NCBI GenBank assembly: GCA_946415785.1
Contig: CAMKTV010000001.1
Location: 38,882 to 102,881, forward strand
Source: an uncultured Solobacterium sp.
GTDB lineage: Bacteria > Bacillota_I > Bacilli_A > Erysipelotrichales > Erysipelotrichaceae
Direction: 5' to 3'
Length of the DNA stretch: 64,000 bases
The notes under the pieces were generated by a model. It was not told the DNA's origin and ran no database searches. It was given only the letters and a program-made list of their open reading frames with translations. Below, piece after piece: positions 7,781 to 60,138 of this stretch. Position 1 is the first letter of the stretch; every line of letters starts with the position of its first letter. The position numbers and the translations under genes were made by a program.

Positions 7781-9054
7781 GCGAAAAAGAAATCATTTCT
7801 TTTATTGAAGATAGACCTTGGGTGAGATCATCTGATCGATTAGAGAAGATGAGTCTTATTTTAAAAGAACTTCATAATCCGCAAAAGAAATTAAAATATA
7901 TTCATGTCGCTGGTACTAATGGTAAAGGGTCATGTTGCGCATTACTTACAAGTATTCTAATTGACAGCGGTTATAAAGTAGGTACTTATACTTCTCCTCA
8001 TTTAATTAAATATAATGAGCGTTTCTGTATAAACAATATTCCTGTTTCTAATAAAGAATTAGGTTTAATAATAAAAGATTTAAAACAAGCATTTAAAAGA
8101 TTGGATTTTGTGCCAAGTGTTTTTGAAACACTTACAGCGATTGCCTTTGAATATTTTAAAAGAGAAAAAGTAGATGTCGTTGTTTTAGAAGTTGGCTTAG
8201 GTGGCAGATACGATGCTACAAATATCATTGATAAATCACAATTAAGTATTCTTATGAATATTGGCCTTGAACATACAGAAGTATTGGGTAAGACTTTAGA
8301 AAAGATTGCTTATGAAAAGTCTGGCATCATTAAGGAAAATGGTGATGTTTTATCTTATGACAATTCAAAAAAAGTAATTAAAGTATTTAAAGAAGTAGCT
8401 AAAGAAAAAAAGGCCAGATTAAAAGTTGTGAACTTTGATTTAATAAAGATCAAAGAAGAAGGATTAGATCATCAGATTTTTGATTATGGTCATTTAAAGA
8501 ATATTGAATTAGGCTTATTGGGAAGGCATCAATTCTATAATGCTGCTGTAGTCATTGAAGCGATAAAGATATTAAGAAAAAAGGGCTACAACATTTCTAA
8601 TGATAATTTAAGAAATGGTTTAAAAAATGTTAAGTGGAATGCACGATTAGAGATATTATCTAAAAATCCTTTGTTTATTTTAGATGGTGCTCATAATCCT
8701 CAATGTGTCAGTGCTTTGAAAAAATCTTTACCATTTTTAATCGGAAAGAAAAAAGCTTATTTTATATTTGGAAGTTTAACTGATAAAGATTATCTTAAGA
8801 TGATTGATATGATGGCTCCTTACGCGAAAGAATTTATCTGTTTTGCGCCAAATTCAAATAGAGCCCTAAAAGCATCTAAATTAGCTATGATAATTAAAAA
8901 GAAGGGTATTAAGGCTACTTGTGCTTCTTCTTGTCTAGAAGCTATTGAAAAAGCTTATAAGAAAACTAAAAAAGATGATGTGATAATTGCTTTTGGTTCT
9001 TTATATTTAGCTGGTGAAATAAAAGATGAATTTAATAAATATCTTGGCTTATAA
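7777..9054 (+). CDS. folC: Folylpolyglutamate synthase / dihydrofolate synthase
   Basis: Mur-ligase P-loop HVAGTNGKGS, the motifs LEVGLGGRYDATN and DGAHNP. Confidence 0.9.
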   Translation: MSEKEIISFIEDRPWVRSSDRLEKMSLILKELHNPQKKLKYIHVAGTNGKGSCCALLTSILIDSGYKVGTYTSPHLIKYNERFCINNIPVSNKELGLIIKDLKQAFKRLDFVPSVFETLTAIAFEYFKREKVDVVVLEVGLGGRYDATNIIDKSQLSILMNIGLEHTEVLGKTLEKIAYEKSGIIKENGDVLSYDNSKKVIKVFKEVAKEKKARLKVVNFDLIKIKEEGLDHQIFDYGHLKNIELGLLGRHQFYNAAVVIEAIKILRKKGYNISNDNLRNGLKNVKWNARLEILSKNPLFILDGAHNPQCVSALKKSLPFLIGKKKAYFIFGSLTDKDYLKMIDMMAPYAKEFICFAPNSNRALKASKLAMIIKKKGIKATCASSCLEAIEKAYKKTKKDDVIIAFGSLYLAGEIKDEFNKYLGL

Positions 9055-9064
9055 TAATTAAGAA

Positions 9065-9835
9065 ATGAAAAAGGTCTTAATAATTCCTAATCCTTATTTA
9101 GAGAATAAAGAAACAGTGATTAAAAAAGTTATTAATAACTTAGGAAAAATAGAAACTGTTATTTTTGATAAGCCTTTAATCAATAAGAAAGATTATTTAA
9201 CTTTAAATAAATATTTAATTGATGTTGACTGTATTATTACTCTTGGTGGTGATGGTTCTTTATTAAAGGTCGCTATGATTGCAGCTAAAAATAATATTCC
9301 TTTATTAGGAATCAATTATGGTAATAGAGGTTATCTAACATCATTAAAGAAGAATGAATTAAAACAGTTAAAAAGATTAGTTAAAGATGAATATAAAACT
9401 GATTCAAGAATGATGCTGGATGTTTTGATTGATAATGGAAAGAGATATGAACAGCTAGCTTTAAATGATGTGATTATTAATAAAAAAGAAATAAATGTTC
9501 CAATTAAATTATCAGTTAATAAAAAAGATATCTATTATGGTGATGGCTTAATTGTTTCCACCTTAACTGGTTCTAGTGCATATAATTATTCAGCTGGTGG
9601 ACCTTTACTTAAAAAGGGAAGACAGGCTGTTTTAACTCCTATTTGTCCTGTTTCAAGAAATAATAAATCAAAAATATATGAAGATGATTTTAAACTTCAT
9701 ATTAAACCAGTTAGAGACCTTCGTGATGAAGCATTAGTTTCTGTTGATGGTTTTAAACCAATAAGAATCAATAATAAAAGCACTATTATAATTAGTGCTT
9801 CTAAATATCAGGCTAAATTAATCAGATTAAATTAA
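9065..9835 (+). CDS. nadK: NAD kinase
   Basis: GGDGSLL motif, NDV.I and the TGSSAYN.SAGGP motif. Confidence 0.9.
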   Translation: MKKVLIIPNPYLENKETVIKKVINNLGKIETVIFDKPLINKKDYLTLNKYLIDVDCIITLGGDGSLLKVAMIAAKNNIPLLGINYGNRGYLTSLKKNELKQLKRLVKDEYKTDSRMMLDVLIDNGKRYEQLALNDVIINKKEINVPIKLSVNKKDIYYGDGLIVSTLTGSSAYNYSAGGPLLKKGRQAVLTPICPVSRNNKSKIYEDDFKLHIKPVRDLRDEALVSVDGFKPIRINNKSTIIISASKYQAKLIRLN

Positions 9836-10746
9836 TCTTTTTTCCATAAGTCAAAAGGATAGAAACCGTTGTCTTTAAATTCTTGAATCTTGGCAACAAC
9901 TTTTGGCTTGTCTTCTTTATAAGTTACACCAAACCATTTTGAACTTGTAGGTATAACTTTTACATTGCATTGTTTTCTATTAACTAAAACACCTACATGA
10001 TTTGGCAATAATGCTTCATATTTAAGTGGATTATTCTCAAGTCCTCTTGGTAAGTCTTCTTTAAAGATGTCTTCTAATTTCTTTAAGACACTTGGCATAA
10101 AGCCAAAGAAGTTCATTGATACTGGTGTATCAACATCAATTGCCTTATAAACGCCATCTTCTTCATATTCAGCACCACCATCAACTTTTTTAATATTCAT
10201 GACTTCTTTGATGCTAGTAAGATAATCACCTTCATCTTTTTGACAGATAGCTCTAGTAACTGTTCCATTATCAGATAATGTATTTCCTAATTTAAAGCCA
10301 GCCATACAATAATCACTTTCACCAATGCCTTCTTGGAAATAATCATAAATAACTTTAAATGAATCTCTGCCATAGAAATCATCCGCATTACAGATAATAA
10401 ATGGATCATCTTTTAAGATATGACGACATGAAAGTAGGGCATGTGTTGTACCCCATGGCTTAACTCTGCCTTCAGGAACTTTTATACCATCAGGTAAATC
10501 ATTAATATCTTGATAAGCATATTCAACTTCAATGAATGGTCTGATTTTTTTAACCAGATTTTCTTCAAATAATTCTTCATGTTCCTTCCTGATGATTAAA
10601 ACTAATTTTTTAAAGCCAACTTTAATTGCATCATAAATTGTAAAATCAATAATTGATTCACCATTAGAACCAATTGTATCGATTTGTTTTAAGCCTCCAT
10701 AACGGCTGCCCATTCCAGCTGCTAAAATAACTAATGTTTCTTTCAT
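9832..10746 (-). CDS. Sugar-phosphate nucleotidyltransferase family protein
   Basis: N-terminal LAAGMGSRYGG.KQ signature of NTP-transferase folds. The substrate is unknown. Confidence 0.7.
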   Translation of the reverse strand: MKETLVILAAGMGSRYGGLKQIDTIGSNGESIIDFTIYDAIKVGFKKLVLIIRKEHEELFEENLVKKIRPFIEVEYAYQDINDLPDGIKVPEGRVKPWGTTHALLSCRHILKDDPFIICNADDFYGRDSFKVIYDYFQEGIGESDYCMAGFKLGNTLSDNGTVTRAICQKDEGDYLTSIKEVMNIKKVDGGAEYEEDGVYKAIDVDTPVSMNFFGFMPSVLKKLEDIFKEDLPRGLENNPLKYEALLPNHVGVLVNRKQCNVKVIPTSSKWFGVTYKEDKPKVVAKIQEFKDNGFYPFDLWKKD

Positions 10747-10748
10747 GT

Positions 10749-11459
10749 TTAATCTCCTTTACTTATTTGTCTAAAAGTATCACTTATTGAAGAATGAATG
10801 ATAATATCACACATATTGTCTTTTGGGGTTGATGATTTATTGATTATCGCTAAATGTTTACCATTGAAATAATTAATGAAACTTGCGGCAGGATAAACAT
10901 TAAGAGATGTTCCTAGGATTACTAATGTATCGGCATCATAAATTGAAATTGTAGCTTTATGAATTGTCATTTCATCTAGTCCTTCTTCATATAAGACGAC
11001 ATCAGGTTTGATTATACCACCACATTCACAATAGGGAATACCGTCAGTTTTTAAGATATCTTCTAAACTGTAGAATTTATGACATTTCATACAATAGTTA
11101 CGATTGACAGATCCATGTAGTTCATATACTTTTTTACTTCCTGCTTTTTGGTGCAAGCCATCAATGTTTTGAGTAACTACAGTGACATCTTTTTCATCCT
11201 GTAAGGAAGCAATATATTCATGTCCATAATTTGGTAGGGCATCAGGAAACAACATCTTTTCACGATAAAATTCATAGAACTCTTTTGGATGTGTCATGTA
11301 ATATGTATGAGATAGAATCTCTTCAGCGTGAAGGTTGTTATTATATAGACCTGTAGCTGAACGAAAATCAGGAATGCCACTGTCTGTTGACATACCAGCA
11401 CCCGTAAAGAAAACAATTTTCTTGGCGCCTTTAATCGCTGCTTTTAATTTATTTATCAT
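10749..11459 (-). CDS. NAD-dependent protein deacylase (Sir2 family)
   Basis: The motifs GAGMSTDSGIPDFRS, QNIDGLH and HG, plus Zn-ribbon cysteines (CMKC ... CECGG). Confidence 0.9.
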   Translation of the reverse strand: MINKLKAAIKGAKKIVFFTGAGMSTDSGIPDFRSATGLYNNNLHAEEILSHTYYMTHPKEFYEFYREKMLFPDALPNYGHEYIASLQDEKDVTVVTQNIDGLHQKAGSKKVYELHGSVNRNYCMKCHKFYSLEDILKTDGIPYCECGGIIKPDVVLYEEGLDEMTIHKATISIYDADTLVILGTSLNVYPAASFINYFNGKHLAIINKSSTPKDNMCDIIIHSSISDTFRQISKGD

Positions 11460-11555: not shown

Positions 11556-13040
11556 ATGGCGAGATTAACACGTACGCAAAAATATGCTGACTTTAGAGAA
11601 GAACTTTCTAATAGTCGTGAAGATTCATTAAGAACCAACGTCTTAGATGCTTATAGTAATAGAATGAAAAGCATTGATGAAGCACTTGGGGAAGAAATTA
11701 AAGATGCTTTAGAAAGACAAAATGATATCGCTCATTTTGTTGACGAAGAGTTTTTTAATAATGAAAATAAAGAAGCGCCACAAGAAGAATTAAACTTCGC
11801 TAAAATAGAACCACAAGAAGAAACAAACCAAAACGATATTGACGACTTTAATATTGACATAGATGATGATCAAGATGACTTCTTTGAATTTAAAAAGAGA
11901 TTAGATGAAGTTGTAAGTCAAGTATTGGGTGATGAAGAATCAAAAGATGAAGTTGAAGAAGCTGATGTAGTAATTAAATATGGTGGCACAAAAACAGATG
12001 AAGAACCTTCTTCTGAAGAAAATTTTGAAGATGATAATAAAGAAGAATCTTTAGATATACAAAATGAAGAAGAAACACAAGTAGAAACTGAAGAGCCTAA
12101 AGAAGAAGCAGTTATCTATGAAGAAGAACAGAAAGATGAAATTGTTGAAGATGTCCAAGATATTAACGAACCTATCGAGGAAGAAAAACCTGTAGAAGAA
12201 GTAGAGGTTGTCCCAACAGTTGAAGAACCTGTTGTTATTAATGTTAAAGAAAATAAAAAACCTATTACTCCTATTGATGTTGATGAGATAGTCGATAATT
12301 TATTAAGAATAATTGGACCACTTGATGAATTAAAAATAAAAGAGACAGTTCATTATGTACCTCCTGTAGAAGAACCTGTAGAAGAAATTGTTGAAAAACC
12401 TATTGAGGAAGAAGTTAAAGATAAACTAGAAGAAATAATTTCGGAAATTGAAGAAGAGATTAAACCAATTGAAGAAGAAATAGAAGAGAACGTTCCTGAA
12501 CAAGAAGAACCAGTTCAAGAAGAAAACGAAATAGTCACAGAAGAAGAAAAGACTCAAGAAATTCCTGAACAAGAAGAACCAGTTCAAGAAGAAAACGAAA
12601 TAGTCACAGAAGAAGAAAAGACTCAAGAAATTCCTGAACAAGAAGAACCAGTTCAAGAAGAAAAGGCTGAAGAAATTCCTGATTCTGTTAGCGAACAAAT
12701 TGATCAAGTATTATTAGATGCTAAAGATACAATAGCTATTAAAGAAGACGATATTACAGCTGTATTTAATAGTGAAGAATTTAATCATCCAGTTTTAGAA
12801 AAGAAAGAAGAAGCTATAGAAGAAGATGCGGTGGAAATACTTCCAATGGAAGAAACATTAAAATTTGATGTTGTTGATGATACAATTCCATTCACTGGTT
12901 TTGCACAAGACGAAGAAGATGAAGAAGAAATTGAAGATGCAAGTTTCTCAAAAGCTATCAATATCATCTTGATTGTCTTGATTGTAATATTAGCTATTAT
13001 TTTAGGTGTTGTTATATATTACTTGTGGAAAATGAGGTAA
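11556..13040 (+). CDS. Tail-anchored, extremely acidic (Glu-rich) repeat protein
   Basis: 494 aa. The N-terminus is MARLTRTQKYADFREEL. The body is long and rich in E, P, V and I. A single C-terminal TM helix (INIILIVLIVILAIILGVVIYYLW) is followed by KMR. GGAGG lies upstream. Confidence 0.75.
   Translation: MARLTRTQKYADFREELSNSREDSLRTNVLDAYSNRMKSIDEALGEEIKDALERQNDIAHFVDEEFFNNENKEAPQEELNFAKIEPQEETNQNDIDDFNIDIDDDQDDFFEFKKRLDEVVSQVLGDEESKDEVEEADVVIKYGGTKTDEEPSSEENFEDDNKEESLDIQNEEETQVETEEPKEEAVIYEEEQKDEIVEDVQDINEPIEEEKPVEEVEVVPTVEEPVVINVKENKKPITPIDVDEIVDNLLRIIGPLDELKIKETVHYVPPVEEPVEEIVEKPIEEEVKDKLEEIISEIEEEIKPIEEEIEENVPEQEEPVQEENEIVTEEEKTQEIPEQEEPVQEENEIVTEEEKTQEIPEQEEPVQEEKAEEIPDSVSEQIDQVLLDAKDTIAIKEDDITAVFNSEEFNHPVLEKKEEAIEEDAVEILPMEETLKFDVVDDTIPFTGFAQDEEDEEEIEDASFSKAINIILIVLIVILAIILGVVIYYLWKMR
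12495..12664 (+). repeat. Perfect 69-bp in-frame tandem repeat (2 full copies plus 32 nt)
   Basis: Units start at 12495, 12564 and 12633. Each encodes PEQEEPVQEENEIVTEEEKTQEI. Copies 1 and 2 are identical base for base. Confidence 0.95.
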
Positions 13041-19567: not shown

Positions 19568-20325
19568 TGAAAATAATAAACTGGAACGTTAATGGTTTAA
19601 GAGCTATTTTATCTAAAGGAAATCTAATTGATTTTTTAAAGGAAGAAGATCCTGATATTTTAGCTATTGAAGAAACTAAGATGCAAGAAGATCAGCTTAC
19701 ATATAATTTTGAAGGTTATTATCGATATATGAATTGTGCAGAGAGAAAAGGCTATTCAGGTACGATGGTACTTACAAAGATTAAACCAATTAGTGTTTCT
19801 TTTGATATAAAAGGTAAAGACCATCCAAAAGAAGGAAGAGTGATTACTTTAGAATTTGAGAAGTTCTATTTTGTCTGTGCATATGTTCCTAATTCTAAAG
19901 ATGGTTTAAAGCGTCTTGATTATCGTATGATTTGGGAAGATGATTTAAGAAAGCATTTAATTAAATTAGATAAATTAAAACCAGTTATTTATTGTGGTGA
20001 TTTAAATGTCGCTCATAATGAGATAGATTTAAAAAATCCTGATGAGAATCATTTCTCGGCAGGTTTTTCAGATGAAGAAAGAGAAAAATTCTCAAAATTA
20101 TTAGCTGCAGGTTTTGTGGACACATATCGTGAAATTTATCCTGATAGAATTCAATATTCATGGTGGTCATATCGTACTCTCGCAAGGCAACGTGGTGTAG
20201 GTTGGCGTATTGATTATTTTGTGGTATCTAAAAGATTTATGTCAGAAATTAAAGACAGTATTATTTACGATAAGATTGAAGGTTCAGATCATTGCCCAGT
20301 AGGGATAATAATAAAGGAGAGCTGA
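19567..20325 (+). CDS. xth: Exodeoxyribonuclease III
   Basis: The motifs NWNVNGLRA, ETK, GDLNVAH, WRIDY and SDHCP. Confidence 0.92.
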   Translation: MKIINWNVNGLRAILSKGNLIDFLKEEDPDILAIEETKMQEDQLTYNFEGYYRYMNCAERKGYSGTMVLTKIKPISVSFDIKGKDHPKEGRVITLEFEKFYFVCAYVPNSKDGLKRLDYRMIWEDDLRKHLIKLDKLKPVIYCGDLNVAHNEIDLKNPDENHFSAGFSDEEREKFSKLLAAGFVDTYREIYPDRIQYSWWSYRTLARQRGVGWRIDYFVVSKRFMSEIKDSIIYDKIEGSDHCPVGIIIKES

Positions 20326-20327
20326 TT

Positions 20328-21668
20328 ATGAAAAAATTTGTGGAAGAAAATTATGAATCAATGGTAAAAGACTTAGGAGTACTTGTGAGTCATAATTCTG
20401 TTTATGCAGAAGATGAAAAACCATTTGGTAAAGAAAATCGTGCAGTCTTATTAGATGCCATGAAATTAATGGAAGATAAGGGCTTTAAGACAGAAAATGT
20501 TGATTATTATGCCTGCTATGGCGAAATAGGACAAGGCGATAAGACAATTGGTATTGTTGCCCATTTGGATATTGTTCCTGCAGGTGAAGGTTGGGAATCT
20601 GATCCTTTTAAAGTAACTTTAAAGGGTGACCGTCTATATGGAAGGGGCGTATCTGATGATAAGGGGGCAGCCATTGCCAGTATGTATGCCATGAAATATT
20701 TAAAAGATATTAATTATCCTTTAAAAAAGAAAGTAAGATTAATACTTGGCTGTAATGAAGAAACAGGATCACAATGTGTTAGATATTATGTTGAAAAATG
20801 TGGCAGTCCTGATATGGGCTTTACACCTGATGGAAGCTTCCCTGGCATCTATGCGGAAAAAGGAATGATTGCAGGACTTCTTCAAGGAAGAAAAACAAAG
20901 ATTATTAGTATTGAAGGTGGTGAAGCTAGAAATATTGTTTGTAAGAAGGTAGTCTGCGTTGTACCAAATGATTCATTTAATTTAGAAAAATTTAAAGCAT
21001 ATCTAGATGAAAATAATATTTCATATGAAATCAAGAAAGAACTTAACACAACATTAACAGTTAATGGTGTGGCAGCTCATGGTGCTAGTCCAGATCTTGG
21101 AGTCAATGCGATTAATTATTTATTTGAAGGATTATATAATGCAGATTTTAATGATGCTTATGTTGATTTCTTCCATAAATACATTGGTCTATGTCTTCAT
21201 GGTGAAAAGATGGGCTTTGAGAGTATCAAAGATGAAGCGACTAATACTTCAACTAATATTGGCATCATCTATAAAGAAGGTGATGTAATAAATGCCACAG
21301 TTGATATGCGTTTCCCAATCAAGGCAAGCGTTTCAAAATGTAAGGAATTAATTGATGAAGTCAAAGATGAAAATAACGAATTTGTGATAAAAGGTGGAAT
21401 TGAACCAATCTATTTTGCCCAAGATGCACCAATGATTAAAGCGATGATTAAAGCTTATCAGGATGTTACTGGTGACTTTGAATCTAAAATGAAGGCAATA
21501 GGTGGAGGCACATATGCGAAAAGTGTCGGCAACATTATTGCCTTTGGTTGTGGATTTGAAAAAGATAAGGACAATATTCATAATGCGAATGAATCAATGT
21601 CAATTGAAAATTTCAAGAAACAAGTACTAATATATATCGAAGCAATTAAAAACTTGAATGAGGTATAA
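20328..21668 (+). CDS. pepV: M20-family dipeptidase (PepV / Sapep type)
   Basis: The motifs HLDIVPAG.GW, GRG..DDKG and NEETG. I chose the start at MKKFVEEN behind AAGGAGA. The ORF-track start at 20292 would overlap xth. Confidence 0.85.
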   Translation: MKKFVEENYESMVKDLGVLVSHNSVYAEDEKPFGKENRAVLLDAMKLMEDKGFKTENVDYYACYGEIGQGDKTIGIVAHLDIVPAGEGWESDPFKVTLKGDRLYGRGVSDDKGAAIASMYAMKYLKDINYPLKKKVRLILGCNEETGSQCVRYYVEKCGSPDMGFTPDGSFPGIYAEKGMIAGLLQGRKTKIISIEGGEARNIVCKKVVCVVPNDSFNLEKFKAYLDENNISYEIKKELNTTLTVNGVAAHGASPDLGVNAINYLFEGLYNADFNDAYVDFFHKYIGLCLHGEKMGFESIKDEATNTSTNIGIIYKEGDVINATVDMRFPIKASVSKCKELIDEVKDENNEFVIKGGIEPIYFAQDAPMIKAMIKAYQDVTGDFESKMKAIGGGTYAKSVGNIIAFGCGFEKDKDNIHNANESMSIENFKKQVLIYIEAIKNLNEV

Positions 21669-30484: not shown

Positions 30485-31441
30485 ATGATTAATGTTTATA
30501 TTGTTTCGGGATTTTTAGGCGCTGGTAAGACAACTTTTATTCAGAAGTTATTAAAGGAAAAGAAGTTTCCTAAACCTGTTTTATTAGAAAATGAATTTGG
30601 TGAAATAGGTGTTGATAGTGCTTTCTTTGATTCAGCATTAAATATAAAAGAAATCAACAATGGCTGTATATGTTGTTCATTACAGGGTGATTTTAAGAAG
30701 GCTCTTGAAGAAATAGAAGATATGGAAATATCTGATTTGATTATCGAACCTTCAGGTGTCGGTAAGTTATCAGAGATTTTAAATGTCGTCAGTGAAGATG
30801 AAGACTTCAGAATTGTTTCGCATATTTGTGTAGTGGACGTTAAGACATGTAATAAATATCATAAGAATTTTAAAGAATATTTTGATGATCAAATCAAAGC
30901 TGCCAATGCGATTATCCTATCTCATCTTGATATCGCAGACAAAGAAGATATTGATAAGGCAAAAGCGATTATTGAAGAAATAAATGATGATATTGTCGTT
31001 TTAGATAAACCATTAGAAGATTATTCATTAGAAGAATTATTAGATTTGATTGTAACTGGTCATTTTGAATTTGAACATCATGACCACAATCATGAACATG
31101 AACATCATCATGAACATGAACATCACCATCATCATGAACACGATCATGAACATCATCACCATCACCATGATGATGACGATGAAGATGAAATATTTAAAAA
31201 TCAGATAATCAGAACTGATTATGTTTTTGAAATTGAAGAATTAGAAAAAATCTTAAGTGATGTAGAAGATGACATCATTCGTATCAAAGGCTATGTACAT
31301 GGTGTAGAAGGTACTTTATATATCAATTATGTATTAAATCAGGCACATATCTATTATGGAGAAAAAAGAGAAGATACATTGATATCAATTATTGGTACAG
31401 CTATAAATAGAGAAAAATATAAAGAGGCTTTCCATGAATAG
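30485..31441 (+). CDS. COG0523-family (CobW/ZigA-like) metallochaperone GTPase with His-rich insert
   Basis: Walker A GFLGAGKTT, metal motif CICC, and IIEPSGVG. A His/Asp/Glu tract HFEFEHHDHNHEHEHHHEHEHHHHHEHDHEHHHHHHDDDDEDE is encoded at about 31061-31188. Confidence 0.85.
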   Translation: MINVYIVSGFLGAGKTTFIQKLLKEKKFPKPVLLENEFGEIGVDSAFFDSALNIKEINNGCICCSLQGDFKKALEEIEDMEISDLIIEPSGVGKLSEILNVVSEDEDFRIVSHICVVDVKTCNKYHKNFKEYFDDQIKAANAIILSHLDIADKEDIDKAKAIIEEINDDIVVLDKPLEDYSLEELLDLIVTGHFEFEHHDHNHEHEHHHEHEHHHHHEHDHEHHHHHHDDDDEDEIFKNQIIRTDYVFEIEELEKILSDVEDDIIRIKGYVHGVEGTLYINYVLNQAHIYYGEKREDTLISIIGTAINREKYKEAFHE

Positions 31442-42612: not shown

Positions 42613-43512
42613 TTATGATGATAAGGATTGTTGCCTAAACTCTAAAGGCGATAATCCTTTTCTTTTGATATTAATTCTTTCTTCGTTGTAATAAGTAATA
42701 TATTCTTTCATAGCTTTTCTTAAATCTTCTAATGATTCATATTTATAGTCATAATACATCTCGTTCTTCATAATCCCAAAGAAGTTCTCCATTAAGGAAT
42801 TATCCATACAGTTACCTTTTCTTGAGAAAGATTGTTGTATGCCTTTATCTTTTAACCAGTTCATATATGTTTTATGTTGGTATTGCCACCCTTGATCTGA
42901 ATGAAAGATTAATCCTTCTAAGTTAGAGTTATTACTGAATGCCTTATCTATCATTCTTTTAATTTGACTAAAATCTGGATGAATGGATATGTCATAAGAA
43001 ATTATTGATCTGTCATACATATCCATAATTGGTGATAAGTATAGCTTGCCTCCTGGCGCTTTAAACTCTGATACATCTGTAGTCCATTTCTCATTAGGTT
43101 TAGATGTAGAGAAATCTCTTTTGTATTCAGTTTTATTTGTTTCAGTGTTTACTTCTTTATGTAATAAGAGATTTTCTTTATATGCACCATTATCACCTGC
43201 ATATGAATGATATTTATTTCTTGGTTGCTTACCTAATAGTTTATTAGTAGACATAATCCTTTGAATCTTCTTATGATTAATGCCACTTAATTCATCTTCT
43301 AAGGCTATTATAATGCGCCTATAACCGTATCTTTCTTTGTGATGCATAAATACTGGAGTAATAATAGAAAGGATTCTATCATCTTCATTTTTACGTCTAT
43401 TAGTTGCTTCTAGATGTTTTCTTGAATGGTAATAAGAGTAAGTTGACTTAGGAAGTTTAGAGATACTTAAAAGAATCTTTAAGTTATATCTTTGCCTTAG
43501 TTCATCTACCAC
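42613..43512 (-). CDS. IS3-family transposase OrfB (DDE / rve integrase core)
   Basis: The motifs WTTDVSEF, FHSDQGWQY and MENFFGIMKNE form a DDE triad. The frame stays open about 22 codons upstream of the GTG at 43512, overlapping orfA. Confidence 0.9.
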   Translation of the reverse strand: MVDELRQRYNLKILLSISKLPKSTYSYYHSRKHLEATNRRKNEDDRILSIITPVFMHHKERYGYRRIIIALEDELSGINHKKIQRIMSTNKLLGKQPRNKYHSYAGDNGAYKENLLLHKEVNTETNKTEYKRDFSTSKPNEKWTTDVSEFKAPGGKLYLSPIMDMYDRSIISYDISIHPDFSQIKRMIDKAFSNNSNLEGLIFHSDQGWQYQHKTYMNWLKDKGIQQSFSRKGNCMDNSLMENFFGIMKNEMYYDYKYESLEDLRKAMKEYITYYNEERINIKRKGLSPLEFRQQSLSS

Positions 43513-43514
43513 TA

Positions 43515-44009
43515 TTATTTTTTCTTCTGTTCTTGGGCCTTCCTTTTTTGAACTAAGGCACTTAATTTTTTTAAGTATTCATTTTCTGCCTTTAAATATT
43601 CATTTTCTTCTTTGAGTGATTCTAATTCAGATTTATTCTTATCTTTTTTAGGTTTCTTTGTCATGGATGGTCTTTTACCTCTTTTTAATGATTTTAACCC
43701 ATCTATGCCTCTTTCTAAATAGATACGATGCCATTTGATTAATAAGTCAGATCCGATTCCTGTTGAAAAAGCTACAGATCTATATGATTCACCAGATTCC
43801 ACTCTATCAAATAATTCTAATCTTTCTTCAATGCTTAATGTTGGTTTGCCATGTTCTAATCCAGCTTCTCCTAAGAAATCATATACTTTTGCCCATTTTC
43901 TTATTTGCTCACGAAACCCATTGTGTTTCATCCCTGGTGGATCTTCTATATAATCTCCATTCTTATACTTTTTAACACATTCCAATTTAAATTCTTTACT
44001 GTACTTCAT
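43515..44009 (-). CDS. IS3-family transposase OrfA (HTH plus leucine zipper)
   Basis: HTH N-terminus and the C-terminal heptad ELESLKEENEYLKAENEYLKKL. It ends AAG AAA AAA TAA (A6 at 43518-43523). The start is set at MKYSKEF behind AAGGAGG. Confidence 0.88.
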   Translation of the reverse strand: MKYSKEFKLECVKKYKNGDYIEDPPGMKHNGFREQIRKWAKVYDFLGEAGLEHGKPTLSIEERLELFDRVESGESYRSVAFSTGIGSDLLIKWHRIYLERGIDGLKSLKRGKRPSMTKKPKKDKNKSELESLKEENEYLKAENEYLKKLSALVQKRKAQEQKKK

Positions 44010-44099
44010 AATAAAAGTGACCTCCTTTAGTTGGTCCAACTTTAGGGGGTCACTTCAAAGTGTCGTTTTTATATTAAAGCCTTATTAATCAATTAGTAA

Positions 44100-48377: not shown

Positions 48378-48519
48378 TTAATTCTCCTTTCTTCTTTTTA
48401 ACACACAATCACAAGTGTGCCATAATCTTGCTTTATATATAGATCCTTTCGGATCTAACAGCCTTATAATAATATAACGAAAAAAATAAAAATACAAGCG
48501 TTTTTTGCGAAATGTTATA

Positions 48520-48786
48520 ATGTTAGAGAAAATGAAGTTAAGAAGTGATTTTATCAGTCAGGAATTAAATGACAGTATTATCTTAGTGCCACTTGATGGT
48601 TATTTTAAAGGTGTCATTAAAGTAAATGAAAGTGCTGCTTTTATTATTGATTGTCTAAAAGAAGAAACAACTGTTGAAGAAATAAAAAGTAAGTTAATGG
48701 CTAAATACAACATTGATGAAAAAGAGGCAGAAAATAGTGTAAAAAAGATAATTGATAAACTTCAAGAAATTAATGCTTTAATATGA
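48520..48786 (+). CDS. PqqD-family (RiPP recognition element-like) small protein
   Basis: About 85-89 aa. The pattern L..DS.ILV.L.G......V.KVNESAAFI...L.EE.TVEEI...L...Y.IDE.EAE..V...I..L matches PqqD/RRE-type winged-helix proteins. The start is uncertain (ATG 48520 or 48532, TTG 48505). An extended -10-like TGtTATAAT lies at 48513-48521. Confidence 0.7.
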   Translation: MLEKMKLRSDFISQELNDSIILVPLDGYFKGVIKVNESAAFIIDCLKEETTVEEIKSKLMAKYNIDEKEAENSVKKIIDKLQEINALI

Positions 48787-49517
48787 TAGATTTTAAGATT
48801 TCTTTAGCTGGCCTATGTATTGGTGTCAGAGCTAATTATGCAAGTACAGAAGAATTTTGTAAGGATTATAAAGTAGATGAAGATCCTGTTTTTGCTGTGG
48901 AAGTCACTTTACAAGATATCGAAAATGAAAGACAGATCTCTTATGTTCAAAGTGAAAGAGAAAAGGGAAAAAGAATTGAATATCCAAATGAATATTTAGA
49001 AAGATTAGCTTTATATCGAAAAATAGTTGTGAAGATAATTGATTATGATGCCTTTTTATTTCATAGTTCTATCATCGCTGTTGATGGTCTGGCCTATGCT
49101 TTTTCTGCTAAATCAGGTACAGGGAAAACGACCCATACAAGATTTTATTTAGAAAAGATAGAAGGTGCCCATGTCTTGAATGGTGATAAGCCGTTATTAA
49201 GAATAATTGATGATAAGGTTTATGCCTGTGGAACTCCATGGCAGGGAAAAGAAAATTTTGGAACCAATGAAATCCTTCCATTAAAAGCTATCTGCTTATT
49301 GCAAAGAGGAAGTGAAAATGAAATCGAAGAGATTAAGTTTTCACAAGGCTTTAATGATATTGTCCAACAAGCATATCATAATGCAGAAGGTGATTTTTTA
49401 GCTAAATCAATTCAATTAATTTTACGACTTCAAAATAAAATAAAAGTATATCGCTTAAAATGTAACCTTGACCCTAATTCAGCGATTATAAGTTATAATT
49501 TTATAAGAGACAACTAA
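48783..49517 (+). CDS. HPr-kinase-like P-loop protein (ScmC / lasso-peptide-kinase-like)
   Basis: FHSSIIAVDGLAYAFSAKSGTGKTTH matches the H(A/S)S.V...G.A..F.G.SG.GKST signature of HprK C-domain-like kinases found in RiPP clusters. It overlaps the PqqD-like gene by 4 nt. Confidence 0.65.
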   Translation: MIDFKISLAGLCIGVRANYASTEEFCKDYKVDEDPVFAVEVTLQDIENERQISYVQSEREKGKRIEYPNEYLERLALYRKIVVKIIDYDAFLFHSSIIAVDGLAYAFSAKSGTGKTTHTRFYLEKIEGAHVLNGDKPLLRIIDDKVYACGTPWQGKENFGTNEILPLKAICLLQRGSENEIEEIKFSQGFNDIVQQAYHNAEGDFLAKSIQLILRLQNKIKVYRLKCNLDPNSAIISYNFIRDN

Positions 49518-49518
49518 G

Positions 49519-50625
49519 ATGGAGAAAAGAAATATCTTAAATAATAAGCTCTATACAAATATGATCTATTTGATTAATTGTGCTTTAAACAATGAAAAAG
49601 TAGATGATGATTTTAATGATGGAGAATTATTGTCTTTAGCCAAAGGGCATCGTTTATCTGCCTTAGTTGCCAGTGCTTTTAAAAAACCAAATTCTAAATG
49701 GGAAAAAGCTTATTTTAAAGCAATAAGAAGAGAAACTCTTTTTGAACAACAAAGAAAAGAAATCACGCAAGCGTTCAGTGAAGAAAAAATCTGGTATTGC
49801 CTATTAAAAGGAATAATCATGAAAGATTATTATCCTAAAGGCTATTTAAGAGAAATGTCTGATAACGATATTCTGATTGATGAGACAAAATGTGAAGAAA
49901 TAAAAAAGATTATGTTAGAAAAGGGCTATCGTTATGAACACGATTATGGTGAACATCATGACGTCTATGTCAAAGAGCCAATCTTTAAATTTGAACTTCA
50001 TCGCAGTTTAATCTCTGAAGAAAAAGAAAAAGAATTCTTTGAATATTTTAAAGATATAAATAAACGTTTAATCAAAGATGAAAATAATGAATATGAATAT
50101 CATCTTAGTAAAGAAGATTTCTATATCTATTCATTTGTCCATACATATCATCATTATGTTTATAATGGAGCAGGCATAAGACATTTAATTGATATTTATT
50201 TATATACAAGCAAGAATGAACTTGATTGGAATTATATAAATAATGAATTAGAAAAATTAGGCATCTTAGAAAAAGAAAGAACTTTTAGAAAGATTGCCTA
50301 TAAATTATTTTCAACATTTGAAGAATTAACTGAAGAAGAAAAAGAACAGTTAGAATTCATGTTTATATCATGTGTTCATGGCTCATATAAAAGCAGAATC
50401 ATGATTATGATGGCAAAAGATAAAGAGAACAATAAGAACTATCGCTTTAAATATCTTCGTGATCGTTTATTATTAGATGACGCCTATCTAAAAGAAAGAT
50501 ATCCATTCTTTTATAAACACCGTGTTGCTTTGCCATTGCTGACTGTATATCGTCTATTCCGTGGCTTATTTAAAGGACATGGAAGACTTAAATGGGAAAT
50601 AAAGAATTTCGTTAAGAATAAATAA
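49519..50625 (+). CDS. Nucleotidyltransferase family protein (NTP_transf_5 / PF14907-like)
   Basis: LLKGIIMKDYYPKGYLREMSDNDILIDE resembles the LKG...Y....R...D(I/L)D(L/I)L active-site region of this family. It starts 1 nt after the previous stop. Confidence 0.6.
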   Translation: MEKRNILNNKLYTNMIYLINCALNNEKVDDDFNDGELLSLAKGHRLSALVASAFKKPNSKWEKAYFKAIRRETLFEQQRKEITQAFSEEKIWYCLLKGIIMKDYYPKGYLREMSDNDILIDETKCEEIKKIMLEKGYRYEHDYGEHHDVYVKEPIFKFELHRSLISEEKEKEFFEYFKDINKRLIKDENNEYEYHLSKEDFYIYSFVHTYHHYVYNGAGIRHLIDIYLYTSKNELDWNYINNELEKLGILEKERTFRKIAYKLFSTFEELTEEEKEQLEFMFISCVHGSYKSRIMIMMAKDKENNKNYRFKYLRDRLLLDDAYLKERYPFFYKHRVALPLLTVYRLFRGLFKGHGRLKWEIKNFVKNK

Positions 50626-50658
50626 TAGTTTTAATATATTTAGTTAAGGAGGCACATT

Positions 50659-51321
50659 ATGGTTTTTTTAAAAGCTATTAAAAAAGTTAGTATCCTTATT
50701 AGTCTTACTTATATTTTTATTGGATATAAATTACTATCATTAAAGGCCAAAGCTAATGAAGTAGTCTTTACTTTTTTAGCAGTAAGTTTATGTGTTATTG
50801 GTCTATTTATTATCATCAGATATTTATTATTAAAAATAAATGAACGTTATAAAAGAAATGATTTTGTCTTAGGGGCCATCATTTTAATGATTGGTGTTGT
50901 GCTCTTATTTGTTAAAGAGCTGGTAATTGCCTTTGACTATTTAATCCTTGGAAGCATGATTATCATCAGCGCTTTAACAATTGTTCAGGATGCTTTTGAT
51001 GGGAAAGCAATAGGTATGAAACCTGTTACTGGCTATATGGTATTGATGGTTGTGGAACTCGGGATAGGTGCTTTAGTATTAATCAATCCATTTAAAGATG
51101 AATTATCTTTTATAATCATGGGCATAAGTTTAATGATTTGTGGATTAGGTGCTTTTGTTTCTAATTTTGTCTTAGCGATAATAAAAACTAAACATGAAAG
51201 AGAAATAAAAGAAGAAACTTTTGAGCCAATAGATGAGATTAAAGAAGAAAACAAAGAAGAAAAAGAAACACAAGAAGAATATAAATTCATTGAAGATAAA
51301 GAAGATAATACTGAACAATGA
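50659..51321 (+). CDS. Multi-pass membrane protein (DUF308/HdeD-like repeats) with an acidic C-terminal tail
   Basis: Six hydrophobic helices in pairs, then EIKEETFEPIDEIKEENKEEKETQEEYKFIEDKEDNTEQ. AAGGAGG lies upstream. Confidence 0.6.
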   Translation: MVFLKAIKKVSILISLTYIFIGYKLLSLKAKANEVVFTFLAVSLCVIGLFIIIRYLLLKINERYKRNDFVLGAIILMIGVVLLFVKELVIAFDYLILGSMIIISALTIVQDAFDGKAIGMKPVTGYMVLMVVELGIGALVLINPFKDELSFIIMGISLMICGLGAFVSNFVLAIIKTKHEREIKEETFEPIDEIKEENKEEKETQEEYKFIEDKEDNTEQ

Positions 51322-51815
51322 GACTATTAGAAATTTGGCTAGCGGATAATGATTTAAGTTATGATTTGTATAAATCATTTGAAAAAGATGAGAATGGCTT
51401 TATTAATTCTTGTTTTGATATGAATAGAGAAGAATATGATGAGTATGTTTTAAAATGTTATAAAAATTCATTAGGCCAAGATTTAAAGCCAGGTTATGTG
51501 CCTGATAGTAAATATGTGGTTATTGATGATGAAGACAATTATGTTGGAATTGTTAATTTTAGACATTATTTAAATGATGCTTTAAGAAATGGTGCAGGGC
51601 ATATTGGTTATATTATTAGAAAAGAATATCGCAATAAAGGCTATGCTAAAAAAGCTTTAGCTCTAGCTTTAGAAAAATGTAAAGACGCCAATATTCATGA
51701 AGTGTATTTATCTTGTAATCTGGATAATATTGCCTCATTAAAAGTTCAATTAGCTAATGGCGCTATCATTCACCATCAAGATGATAAATGTAATTACACA
51801 AGAATATTTATCTGA
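51318..51815 (+). CDS. GNAT-family N-acetyltransferase
   Basis: The acetyl-CoA motif A is I(R/K)KEYRNKGYAKKALALAL. It overlaps the previous gene by 4 nt (ATGA). Confidence 0.8.
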   Translation: MRLLEIWLADNDLSYDLYKSFEKDENGFINSCFDMNREEYDEYVLKCYKNSLGQDLKPGYVPDSKYVVIDDEDNYVGIVNFRHYLNDALRNGAGHIGYIIRKEYRNKGYAKKALALALEKCKDANIHEVYLSCNLDNIASLKVQLANGAIIHHQDDKCNYTRIFI

Positions 51816-52398
51816 TTGAATATTTACAACCACAATAATTTTGATGATATAGATTCAATTCTTTATTCATTCTTTCGTTGATGATTATGCCATCAGCTTT
51901 TTTAAAGTCAGCATATAAGTATTTAATATGAGGATATTTCTTTTGAAGTTCTTCACCAATTTCATTGATATATAAAGCATTCTTACGATTAGAAATTGAC
52001 ATAATGGTTGCACAATAATCATAATGATGTTTTTCACCATACTTAAATGTTTCTTCCATGCGTAATTTATAGCACTTGTAGCATCTCTTGCCACCTTCTT
52101 TTTCATCTTTAAATTCTTTTAATTCTGCATCATATTTTTCATAATCATAAGGGGCTACAATCAGCTTTATATCAGGATTATTTAAGATGTTTAAATATTC
52201 TTTTAAAGCATTAAGACGTTTAAGATATTCATCATATGGATATATATTTGAATTATAGAAAAAGATTGTTATATCAAAATATTTATTAAGATATATTAAA
52301 GGATAGACACTACAAACACCACAACATACATGTAGCAATAATGTCGGTCTTCCTTTTAGTTCTTGAATTTGTTTTAAGTGTTTTTGATAATTATTCAT
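51808..52398 (-). CDS. queH: Epoxyqueuosine reductase QueH (DUF208)
   Basis: LLLHVCCGVCS ... C..CY..R ... YCGC cysteine pattern, adjacent to queA-tgt. Confidence 0.88.
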   Translation of the reverse strand: MNNYQKHLKQIQELKGRPTLLLHVCCGVCSVYPLIYLNKYFDITIFFYNSNIYPYDEYLKRLNALKEYLNILNNPDIKLIVAPYDYEKYDAELKEFKDEKEGGKRCYKCYKLRMEETFKYGEKHHYDYCATIMSISNRKNALYINEIGEELQKKYPHIKYLYADFKKADGIIINERMNKELNLYHQNYCGCKYSIR

Positions 52399-53419: not shown

Positions 53420-54573
<1,154 letters not shown>

Positions 54574-58257: not shown

Positions 58258-60138
58258 ATGAATCCACTATCACCAAAAACGATTGAAAAAAGGTTTAAAG
58301 AAGCAGGTATAACTCTTAATGAAAGAGAATTATTGCATAGGTATATGCTATGCTTTTCTAATTTGTATGGTTGCATAGAGATAGGTGTACTATGGAATGT
58401 TTTTAAATCATATAAAGAAAACATTACTATGAATAAATTCTATGACTATGTTGATATAGCTCAAAGAATGGATACTGATTTTTATATTTTAAATTTAAAT
58501 GAGGTTTATACAGGAGAAACAAGTGAAGAAACAGAAAATAAACTATTAGTTAATAAATATCTAGTAAGAAGATTTGAATTGAAGTTTTGGTATATCTATC
58601 AATTAGAAGAGTATAAAGATGAAAAATTTGGACCATACATTCCTTCAAAAGAAGAACTATTTAGATTTGACCATGATGTTTTTTATGACAATGAAATTGG
58701 TAGAAAAATGGTATCTTTGATTTCAAATCTTAAAACATCAGGAATAAGTACTAATAAAATTAATAAAAAAGAGATCGAGATGATTGATATAAACGGTAAT
58801 AAATGTAAAGGTAAAAGATTAGCTGATATTATTTATTTCGATAGATATGAACAATCATCAATAGATTATTTTAAGAGACCTAATGAAAAAGAGTATCAAA
58901 TAAAAAAGGCAAGCATACCAAGCGCTAAAAAGATTTTAAATGAAATTAAAAATTGTATTATGATTTATGATACCGATGTTTATATGAATAGACTTAATTA
59001 TATCTTAGAGAAGATTAATTATGATTTAGGTGTTGAATTCACAGAAGAATTTTTAAATGAATTTATGGCATTATTTATGGAATTATCAAATAACTCTAAT
59101 AGATGGAATATATTTGGTTGGAAGCCTAATATGCTTAGTACTATGGTACCTAAACATGATGGTCCAATAAAGCTATCAATCGGTCCAAATATGCGAAAAA
59201 TGATTGAAGATGGTGAATACGATTTAGGTGAAATGGATAAATTTTTTAAGGACAATAATCAAAATGTAATTATTGATGATGAAGAAAAAGATGATTATGA
59301 AAAAATCATCAAAAAGAATAATCTTTATCTTGAAGAATTTAGAGATTTTTTAATAAAGAGAAATTATCGAGAAAGTATAATCGATAAGCACATCTCTAGA
59401 GTTGTATATTATATAAATCACTATCTAATGCATGGAATTCCAAAGAATATGGAAGATGGATGTGGCCTTGATGTTATGAGCTTTATAGAAGATTGTGTTA
59501 ATAGAAAACATTTTCCTGCCAGTGTTCACAATATTGATTTTTATCTAGTAAGCATATCGTTGTTTTATGAATGTATGTGTGAAAAAGGACGAATTTCAAA
59601 AAATGTTTTAAAAGAGTTTAAAAAAGATATTACATCTTTTAAAGACGAACTTGTTGAAGACTATTATGATTGTAACCCAAAAGAAATTGATATCTATGAT
59701 GTAATTGAAGCTATTGAAATGGCAAATGGTTATGGTACGGCATATATGAATATTAAGACAGGTGAAAAGGTCTTTATACCAGAAGAGGAATCGTTATATG
59801 ACGGAGATTTAGATGAATTATATGATAGAATCGATACTCCTAATTGGGTGGAAATTCCTGAAATAAAAGATTATAAAATAATGATGAATTTCGCCAGTCA
59901 AGTTAAAGATAAGAATATATCTAATACATTAATTGGTATTCTTAAAAATAAACATTCATATCGAAATTTTAAAAACGCCATATTTGATATGAATATTGAA
60001 GATGAGTACTACGATTATTATGATGAACAGATTTATCAGATAGCAGAAGATTGGTTAGATGAGAATTGTGTTAATGAATTAATCGATGATTATGATGAAG
60101 ATATTGTTTTTGAAAGCGACAATAATACAAAACATTAA
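58258..60138 (+). CDS. Orphan 626-aa protein with a UPF0158-like C-terminal region
   Basis: Strong RBS (AGAGGAGAAA). The cytoplasmic middle segment LEEFRDFLIKRNYRESIIDKHISRVVYYINHYL resembles a recombinase core-binding/SAM-like helix bundle. The C-terminus (IPE..DYKIMMNFA......L...L......YRNFKNAI...........YY....) resembles UPF0158. Both assignments are tentative. Confidence 0.6.
   Translation: MNPLSPKTIEKRFKEAGITLNERELLHRYMLCFSNLYGCIEIGVLWNVFKSYKENITMNKFYDYVDIAQRMDTDFYILNLNEVYTGETSEETENKLLVNKYLVRRFELKFWYIYQLEEYKDEKFGPYIPSKEELFRFDHDVFYDNEIGRKMVSLISNLKTSGISTNKINKKEIEMIDINGNKCKGKRLADIIYFDRYEQSSIDYFKRPNEKEYQIKKASIPSAKKILNEIKNCIMIYDTDVYMNRLNYILEKINYDLGVEFTEEFLNEFMALFMELSNNSNRWNIFGWKPNMLSTMVPKHDGPIKLSIGPNMRKMIEDGEYDLGEMDKFFKDNNQNVIIDDEEKDDYEKIIKKNNLYLEEFRDFLIKRNYRESIIDKHISRVVYYINHYLMHGIPKNMEDGCGLDVMSFIEDCVNRKHFPASVHNIDFYLVSISLFYECMCEKGRISKNVLKEFKKDITSFKDELVEDYYDCNPKEIDIYDVIEAIEMANGYGTAYMNIKTGEKVFIPEEESLYDGDLDELYDRIDTPNWVEIPEIKDYKIMMNFASQVKDKNISNTLIGILKNKHSYRNFKNAIFDMNIEDEYYDYYDEQIYQIAEDWLDENCVNELIDDYDEDIVFESDNNTKH

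Follow-up and report, generated by a model that had tools for sequence, protein, structure and literature searches.

What do enzymes of a peptide-tailoring type act upon where no precursor peptide is found beside them? The question is raised by a compact gene trio in a 64,000-nucleotide stretch of DNA, hereafter the window, from an uncultured Solobacterium sp. (assembly GCA_946415785.1, contig CAMKTV010000001.1), a gut bacterium of the Erysipelotrichaceae; the 90% cluster that includes its EF-G bears the name of this family. The trio lies closely packed on the + strand at window positions 48532-50625 and encodes a PqqD-type protein, a ScmC-family P-loop protein and an NTP_transf_5 nucleotidyltransferase. 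The reading that we favour, and hold to be about evenly poised between right and wrong, is that these proteins tailor a leader-bearing peptide whose gene lies beyond the 64 kb; the substrate and chemistry it proposes are drawn from fold, motifs and the enzyme pair PsmK/PsmN. Five open reading frames (ORFs), all on the + strand, occupy window positions 48505-51815, and are read as follows (RRE, recognition element of RiPPs, which are peptides synthesised ribosomally and modified post-translationally; PEPCK, phosphoenolpyruvate carboxykinase):

48532..48786, + strand: PqqD-family RRE-like protein, 84 aa (PF05402)
48783..49517, + strand: ScmC-family (PF27840) P-loop protein, 244 aa, a putative RRE-dependent phosphotransferase (PF27840 label of homologues; PEPCK/HprK-like fold)
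49519..50625, + strand: NTP_transf_5 (PF14907) Pol-beta-type nucleotidyltransferase, 368 aa
50659..51321, + strand: DUF308/HdeD-like protein with six transmembrane segments (six-TM) and an acidic tail, a resident neighbour (homologues carry PF03729)
51318..51815, + strand: GNAT acetyltransferase, a resident neighbour (Acetyltransf_3 and Acetyltransf_1)

The original prediction, made from the letters of the window, described three translationally coupled genes of PqqD, P-loop and NTP_transf_5 type; the ORFs lie where it placed them, and its domain calls hold. The PqqD stop and the ScmC start overlap by 4 nt (ATGA), and a single nucleotide separates ScmC from NTP_transf_5. The six-TM gene is preceded by a 33-nt gap containing AAGGAGG and overlaps the GNAT gene by 4 nt. 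The PqqD-type protein passes the Pfam gathering score for PF05402 (E 3e-14; 53.5 bits, cut-off 23.4), which bears out its predicted family, and scores 14 bits against the ScmD model of NCBIfam (TIGR04248). Its predicted length of 93 aa did not stand. The mechanically called ORF begins at a TTG at 48505, and the start kept in relatives is the ATG at 48532, which gives 84 aa; the start was set there because L008, a relative of 88% identity, has its upstream ATG in another frame. Positions 48513-48521 hold an extended -10-like element, TGTTATAAT, which L008 shares and whose end lies 10 nt 5' of the PqqD start; if this element is used, the mRNA of the trio would be nearly leaderless. A generic promoter scan did not score the element, and the scan is uninformative because it returned fewer sites than were found in shuffled controls.

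The 244-aa protein contains the motif quoted in the original prediction, FHSSIIAVDGLAYAFSAKSGTGKTTH. It has no match at E<=1 in the local Pfam copy, Hpr_kinase_C (PF07475) included, and scores 13 bits (cut-off 125; E 0.049) against the NCBIfam ScmC model TIGR04249. It is assigned to PF27840 'ScmC' via the precomputed labels of its homologues, among them the 99%-identical P0001, some of these labels being marked 'faint' or 'weak'. A word-indexed search returned 1,419 homologues, a profile search 6,907 representatives (50% identity) at E<=1e-10, and a metagenome scan with a single protein only 4 distant loci. In a 38-member alignment the invariant positions are H94, S96, the Walker A segment SGTGKTTH (111-118), NGDKP (133-137) and CGTPWxGKE (149-157). 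The AlphaFold (AF2) model (predicted local distance difference test score, pLDDT, 94.8) matches ATP-dependent PEPCK (Foldseek E 2.6e-7) and HPr kinase/phosphorylase (HprK/P; 1kkl, E 2e-6), and as far as the fold goes these matches make the HPr-kinase-like reading correct. With the ScmC profile, a search of PDB sequences gave nothing significant (best E 0.2-0.45). When the ScmC profile was aligned by hhalign with a lasso-peptide PF07475 kinase, only 49 columns around the His...P-loop segment were paired, at a probability of 91%; that kinase, from a lasso cluster of Butyrivibrio fibrisolvens, does match PF07475. The predicted likeness of the 244-aa protein to HprK thus stands for the fold and the His...P-loop segment, and not for membership of the PF07475 family.

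The third protein is assigned more directly. It matches PF14907 with an E-value of 9e-46 (156.9 bits, cut-off 31.2), which confirms the predicted family. Across 49 homologues there is no variation at D115 and D117 of the MSDNDIL motif, H161, H208, H212 or D225, and the first two aspartates form the acidic metal-binding DxD of the Pol-beta nucleotidyltransferase core. All family-invariant residues are kept in the ScmC and NTP_transf_5 proteins of the window. In the AF2 model (pLDDT 92.4) solved structures match the nucleotidyltransferase core only, namely LnuA, ANT(2'')-Ia, MenT1 and, weakly, FKRP, and a profile search of PDB sequences yielded nothing significant. By hhalign, the profile of the family and an NTP_transf_5 protein from a genuine lasso cluster can be aligned from end to end (339 columns, probability 99.6%).

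The genes expected to accompany such enzymes were sought with hidden Markov models (HMMs) of the leader, S26 peptidase, radical S-adenosylmethionine (radical-SAM) maturase, PqqD, ScmC and NTP_transf_5, built from more than 80 related loci. Searched against the six-frame translation of the window, these models returned the trio only, with no S26, radical-SAM or leader match and no second copy of a trio gene. The top leader-like match reaches 12.5 bits, against 26.6-44 for true precursors; lying at 31256-31315 on the - strand, it was rejected as a 20-aa antisense fragment. The ten window ORFs of at least 455 aa that were scanned belong by Pfam to penicillin-binding proteins, peptidases, glycogen metabolism or no family, and none is an Asn-synthase-like cyclase; the Pfam scan left out ORFs shorter than about 450 aa upstream of about 38 kb, where a short B2-type protease is possible. 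Two large ORFs have no Pfam family at E<=1e-5, at 11556-13040 (+, 494 aa) and 58258-60138 (+, 626 aa). In the 98%-identical relative L095, Pfam analysis of the two 10-kb flanks of the trio found no RiPP enzyme, cyclase, B2 protease or exporter, these flanks holding only phosphotransferase system genes, the str operon, the queuosine genes, MgtC and the like. The reported lack of a precursor, cyclase, B2 protease, radical-SAM enzyme and exporter is thus borne out within the window scans and the L095 flanks, and no complete RiPP cluster, which would have weakened the original prediction, lies just outside the cassette in those flanks. For the leader type of the family, the leader HMM in all six frames also rules out the suggestion of the original prediction that the substrate might be encoded by a small, unannotated ORF nearby.

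That leader type was defined on a comparison set of 80 loci from species-representative genomes, to which metagenome contigs were added, nearly all from rumen or gut Clostridia. Neighbour-gene clustering revealed a recurrent RiPP-like cluster of one or more small leader-bearing ORFs, a PqqD protein, a signal-peptidase-like protein of the S26 type (about 155 aa) and ScmC. Optional additions are NTP_transf_5, an ABC exporter resembling MsbA, an acyltransferase-like membrane protein and a maturase of the radical-SAM/SPASM type. The S26-like protein is fused to ScmC in some loci; a half-size ScmC paralogue had been considered for this neighbour of about 150 aa and was rejected, the two having co-clustered via the fusion proteins. 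In 55 loci the sequence extends for 3 kb or more to either side of ScmC; of these, PqqD is found near it (<1 kb) in 34, an S26-like peptidase in 31, NTP_transf_5 in 18, a leader-bearing precursor in 17 and a radical-SAM maturase in 5; 15 loci have none of these features. Thirty-five precursor ORFs were collected in 28 loci. They share the N-terminal leader M..[YF]E.PE[MLV]E[VI][VI].F..[ED]D[VI]I..S(G), in short form PE[ML]EVVRF..EDVIATS (example: MKTPEMEVVRFNESDVIVASG), and carry hypervariable cores of 5-130 aa, 10 of the 35 ending in Q. Examples lie in L015 (8299-8628), L043 (7166-7537 and 8758-9138), L058 (8141-9150) and L103 (7927-8049), and also in L044, L047 and L052; complete clusters are exemplified by L015, L043, L058, L033 and the B. 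fibrisolvens plasmid pNP243 (L106). No Pfam or NCBIfam model matches the precursors, and a literature search found no paper on the precursor/PqqD/S26/ScmC cluster type. Peptide clusters of a class widespread among gut and rumen Firmicutes seem to be defined by the enzyme ScmC, and this large cluster family of rumen and gut Clostridia, apparently undescribed so far, is the more notable by-product of the comparison.

The trio itself is under purifying selection. Against L008, the ratio of nonsynonymous to synonymous substitution rates (dN/dS) is 0.16 for PqqD, 0.11 for ScmC and 0.12 for NTP_transf_5, at a dS of 0.5-0.7. A second lineage, represented by L097, has PqqD, ScmC and NTP_transf_5 in the same order and with overlapping junctions; its ScmC and NTP_transf_5 are 55% and 53% identical to those of the window, and its trio adjoins an unrelated MATE gene in a low-GC genome. 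A neighbour-joining tree unites the trio loci in a single clade, which branches from within clusters with S26 or radical-SAM genes. By its position in this tree the trio is placed as a reduced offshoot of the RiPP-like cluster family of gut and rumen Firmicutes, and the trio-only layout is a maintained architecture.

The proposed tie of the trio to RiPP accessory machinery, made in the original prediction, is upheld by the full-length alignment with the lasso NTP_transf_5 and by the linkage of PqqD with ScmC in dozens of RiPP-like clusters. The PqqD protein of the window matches an HMM of PqqD proteins from ScmC clusters with an E-value of 3e-30, and its NTP_transf_5 an HMM from related clusters with one of 4e-136; a leader of the same kind is therefore expected. 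Cluster parts can be dispersed, since in L103 the genes for a precursor of 40 aa, an ABC exporter and an NTP_transf_5 protein (47% identical to that of the window) are separated from ScmC-PqqD by 9 kb (7927-11116 and 20253-21116), including a 2,204-aa ORF, and in other loci the precursor lies 4-7 kb from ScmC. Because PqqD and NTP_transf_5 match precursor-bearing clusters and the parts of a cluster can be kilobases apart, tailoring in trans is favoured. Under this reading the PqqD protein would bind a peptide or protein, the product of a gene at another site in the genome, by its leader and present it to ScmC, ScmC would phosphorylate a hydroxyl group at the expense of a nucleoside triphosphate, and NTP_transf_5 might then decorate the phosphate with a sugar or a nucleotide, after the example of PsmK and PsmN. 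PsmK, the kinase of the HprK family in the pseudomycoidin cluster, phosphorylates the C-terminal Ser, and PsmN, an 'uncharacterized NTP transferase', is then required for the addition of a hexose to the phosphate (PMC6993621); PsmN is taken here as a presumed counterpart of NTP_transf_5 (PF14907). This pair is the only functional precedent for a kinase acting with an NTP transferase.

Several observations weigh against this reading. No precursor was found in the 64-kb window or in the 10-kb flanks in relatives, and the whole trio clade is devoid of leader peptidase, exporter and precursor, which fits a secreted RiPP poorly. We know of no ScmC-family protein that has been experimentally characterised, and a literature search found none either; phosphorylation by ScmC is for that reason an assumption. 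By sequence comparison, the 244-aa protein is a member of the ScmC family and not a lasso-type kinase of PF07475. The C-terminal Ser on which lasso kinases act is not conserved in the cores of the family. In 15 of the 55 loci ScmC is found without a detectable PqqD, so the ScmC family is not strictly peptide-directed. Lasso kinases have a His-Lys-Asp-Asp catalytic motif (PMC9266682), of which ScmC retains H94, K115 and D135 and lacks the second Asp (NGDK). The exact chemistry of PsmN is not settled either (PMC6993621).

The absence of peptidase and exporter from the whole trio clade also keeps a non-exported target in play. The trio might modify a cellular protein or envelope component recognised by PqqD and thus act as a protein-modification system, an explanation that we consider unlikely and still the strongest of the alternatives. 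It would account for the stable retention, in two lineages, of a trio with no peptidase, exporter or precursor; it is also consistent with the 15 of 55 loci in which ScmC occurs without PqqD, with the FKRP-type phosphotransferases among the weak structural matches of NTP_transf_5, and with several modules of ScmC, PqqD, S26 and NTP_transf_5 inside capsule- or exopolysaccharide-like loci (Wzz- and CpsB-like proteins, LCP, priming transferase, glycosyltransferase). Against it, the PqqD of the window closely matches PqqD proteins encoded beside leader-bearing precursors, no leader-like motif was found in any reading frame of the window, and no candidate target is linked to the trio. The broader proposal of a free-standing trio that has no dedicated precursor, peptidase or exporter, and whose RRE adaptor would guide phosphorylation and then glycosylation or nucleotidylation of a cellular protein or a distant peptide, is likewise doubtful.

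The boundaries of the trio bear on a further explanation, that all five genes form one system in which the DUF308 protein serves as exporter or substrate and GNAT as an extra tailoring enzyme. The shared orientation, the short gaps and overlaps, and the lack of a terminator-like site before 51877 in the five-gene stretch would all fit such a system, and L008 and L095 have the five genes in the same order. It is nevertheless improbable, being largely refuted by locus L102, which has rpsG-rpsL, DUF308-GNAT and queH-queA at the same site and no trio. The genome of L102 is related to the window (RpsL 96%, QueA 87%, GC content 0.30), and its upstream intergenic alignment with the window runs to about 48,490 and then diverges. 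On this alignment the trio is delimited as a discrete insertion/deletion of about 2.15 kb between the str operon and the DUF308-GNAT pair; its GC content, 0.29, matches that of the host. Because L102 has the six-TM and GNAT genes without the trio, they are resident neighbours and not members of the cassette: the position, the overlap and the short gap described in the original prediction are correct, its implied membership is not. ScmC is found without either of them in the other loci examined, and the trio of L097 stands in another context. The six-TM protein gave only sub-threshold Pfam matches, DUF308 among them, and just 6 homologues, labelled PF03729 (DUF308); the GNAT protein matches Acetyltransf_3 and Acetyltransf_1.

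The nucleotide identity of the window and L008 is about 87% overall and rises to 99-100% in 51230-51830 (the end of the DUF308 gene and GNAT) and 53480-54380 (tgt), which indicates recent recombination between the two lineages at these two tracts. The identity of the acidic tails of the six-TM proteins is explained by their lying inside the first of these, where the nucleotide identity is about 100%, and therefore lends no weight to a five-gene system. The tail had also been considered as a substrate, being 100% conserved and ending in Q like many cores; it was rejected in view of the recombination tract and the existence of the gene without the trio.

A decaying remnant of a full cluster, with no present function, would explain why all other parts of complete clusters are missing, and the nearest relatives outside the trio clade do carry S26, radical-SAM or precursor genes. 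The low dN/dS (0.11-0.16) at a dS of 0.5-0.7, the intact frames and the retention of invariant catalytic residues all speak against decay, and the same arrangement is found at 55% identity in another lineage and location. Purifying selection, the trio of L097 and the single trio clade make a transient remnant quite improbable. Least probable of all is a resistance device that inactivates family peptides of neighbouring bacteria by phosphorylation or nucleotidylation: the enzymes resemble antibiotic-modifying kinases and nucleotidyltransferases (the LnuA and ANT(2'') structural matches) and full-cluster producers share the rumen and gut habitat, but the leader normally recognised by a PqqD-type protein is gone from exported products, the trio enzymes have no secretion signal, none of the five proteins matches the PADLOC anti-phage defence-system models at E<=0.01, and direct evidence is lacking.

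The trio can be set against the known systems in which such proteins occur. Like SynChlorMet cassettes (TIGR04248, TIGR04249), the trio has a PqqD-like protein adjoining a ScmC-family P-loop protein (PF27840 on homologues); unlike these cassettes (TIGR04248-04251), it has no radical-SAM enzymes ScmE and ScmF, and with 13 bits against a cut-off of 125 for TIGR04249 its membership of ScmC holds at the Pfam level only. The lasso tailoring set (the B1 PqqD-like RRE, the kinases PadeK, ThcoK and PsmK, and PsmN) comprises the same three protein types, with full-length homology for NTP_transf_5 and a shared fold and His...P-loop segment for ScmC; in contrast to lasso clusters, no cyclase, B2 protease, precursor or exporter was found for the trio, and its ScmC falls outside PF07475 with one Asp only. 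The Firmicutes precursor/PqqD/S26/ScmC clusters are the closest, with PqqD, ScmC and NTP_transf_5 as clear orthologue-level relatives, but the window has none of their precursors, S26 peptidase, ABC exporter, acyltransferase-like membrane protein or radical-SAM maturase. With HprK/P and ATP-dependent PEPCK, ScmC shares the P-loop fold and a Walker A nearly identical to PEPCK kinase-1a (SGTGKTT), and differs in that the sequence similarity is not significant, the genomic context is another one and the CGTPWxGKE motif is its own.

The window thus holds a three-gene version of the system with clear boundaries, a minimal entry to an unstudied ScmC family of about 6,900 representatives. Should the trio act in trans or on a target other than a RiPP, tailoring enzymes guided by an RRE could persist and function apart from clusters, and genome-mining tools would miss such modules or mislabel them as lasso-like. 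A cellular-protein target, if true, would give a protein-modification role to machinery so far known only from RiPP pathways. If the precursor is encoded elsewhere in the genome, the trio would simply be a split cluster.

Other contexts of ScmC were encountered among the compared loci. A separate ScmC clade without PqqD comprises L061, L066, L071, L074, L078, L079 and L089; here (at about 10-12.8 kb in L061) ScmC is followed by a Cys-rich protein of about 70 aa, CCRYCK...FNPFAPRVPRVR...DPLDFKI, and by three genes that are, by sequence reading only, LuxS-like, Pfs/MTA nucleosidase-like and sugar-phosphate nucleotidyltransferase-like. This would be a non-RiPP-looking context for the family. L030, L040, L051 and L054 have ScmC-PqqD-S26-ABC(-NTP_transf_5) amid capsule- or exopolysaccharide-like genes, resembling, on the same kind of reading only, Wzz/CpsD, CpsB phosphatase, LCP and priming sugar transferases, which hints at a possible link of ScmC modules with the synthesis of cell-surface glycopolymers. 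On the plasmid pNP243 of Butyrivibrio fibrisolvens D1 (L106/L107; NZ_CP146964.1, about 185-200 kb), there is a genuine lasso cluster, in which a B2 protease, a PF07475 kinase, an Asn-synthase-like cyclase and an ORF of 49 aa are accompanied by PqqD and two NTP_transf_5 genes. Some 8 kb away is a second sub-cluster, where ABC genes and a ScmC-like protein of 296 aa occur with a peptide of 57 aa, PqqD, a peptidase of S24/S26 type and the glycosyltransferases PssD/PssE.

In plasmid and phage collections the trio finds only partial matches at 30-38% identity, and there is thus no sign of its mobility on such elements. Elsewhere in the window, at 42613-44039 on the - strand just upstream of tuf, lie two ORFs (299 and 174 aa) that read as transposase-like from their sequence only. 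Both are absent from the 98%-identical L095, where a HAD-hydrolase gene abuts tuf, and the segment looks like a strain-specific insertion sequence.

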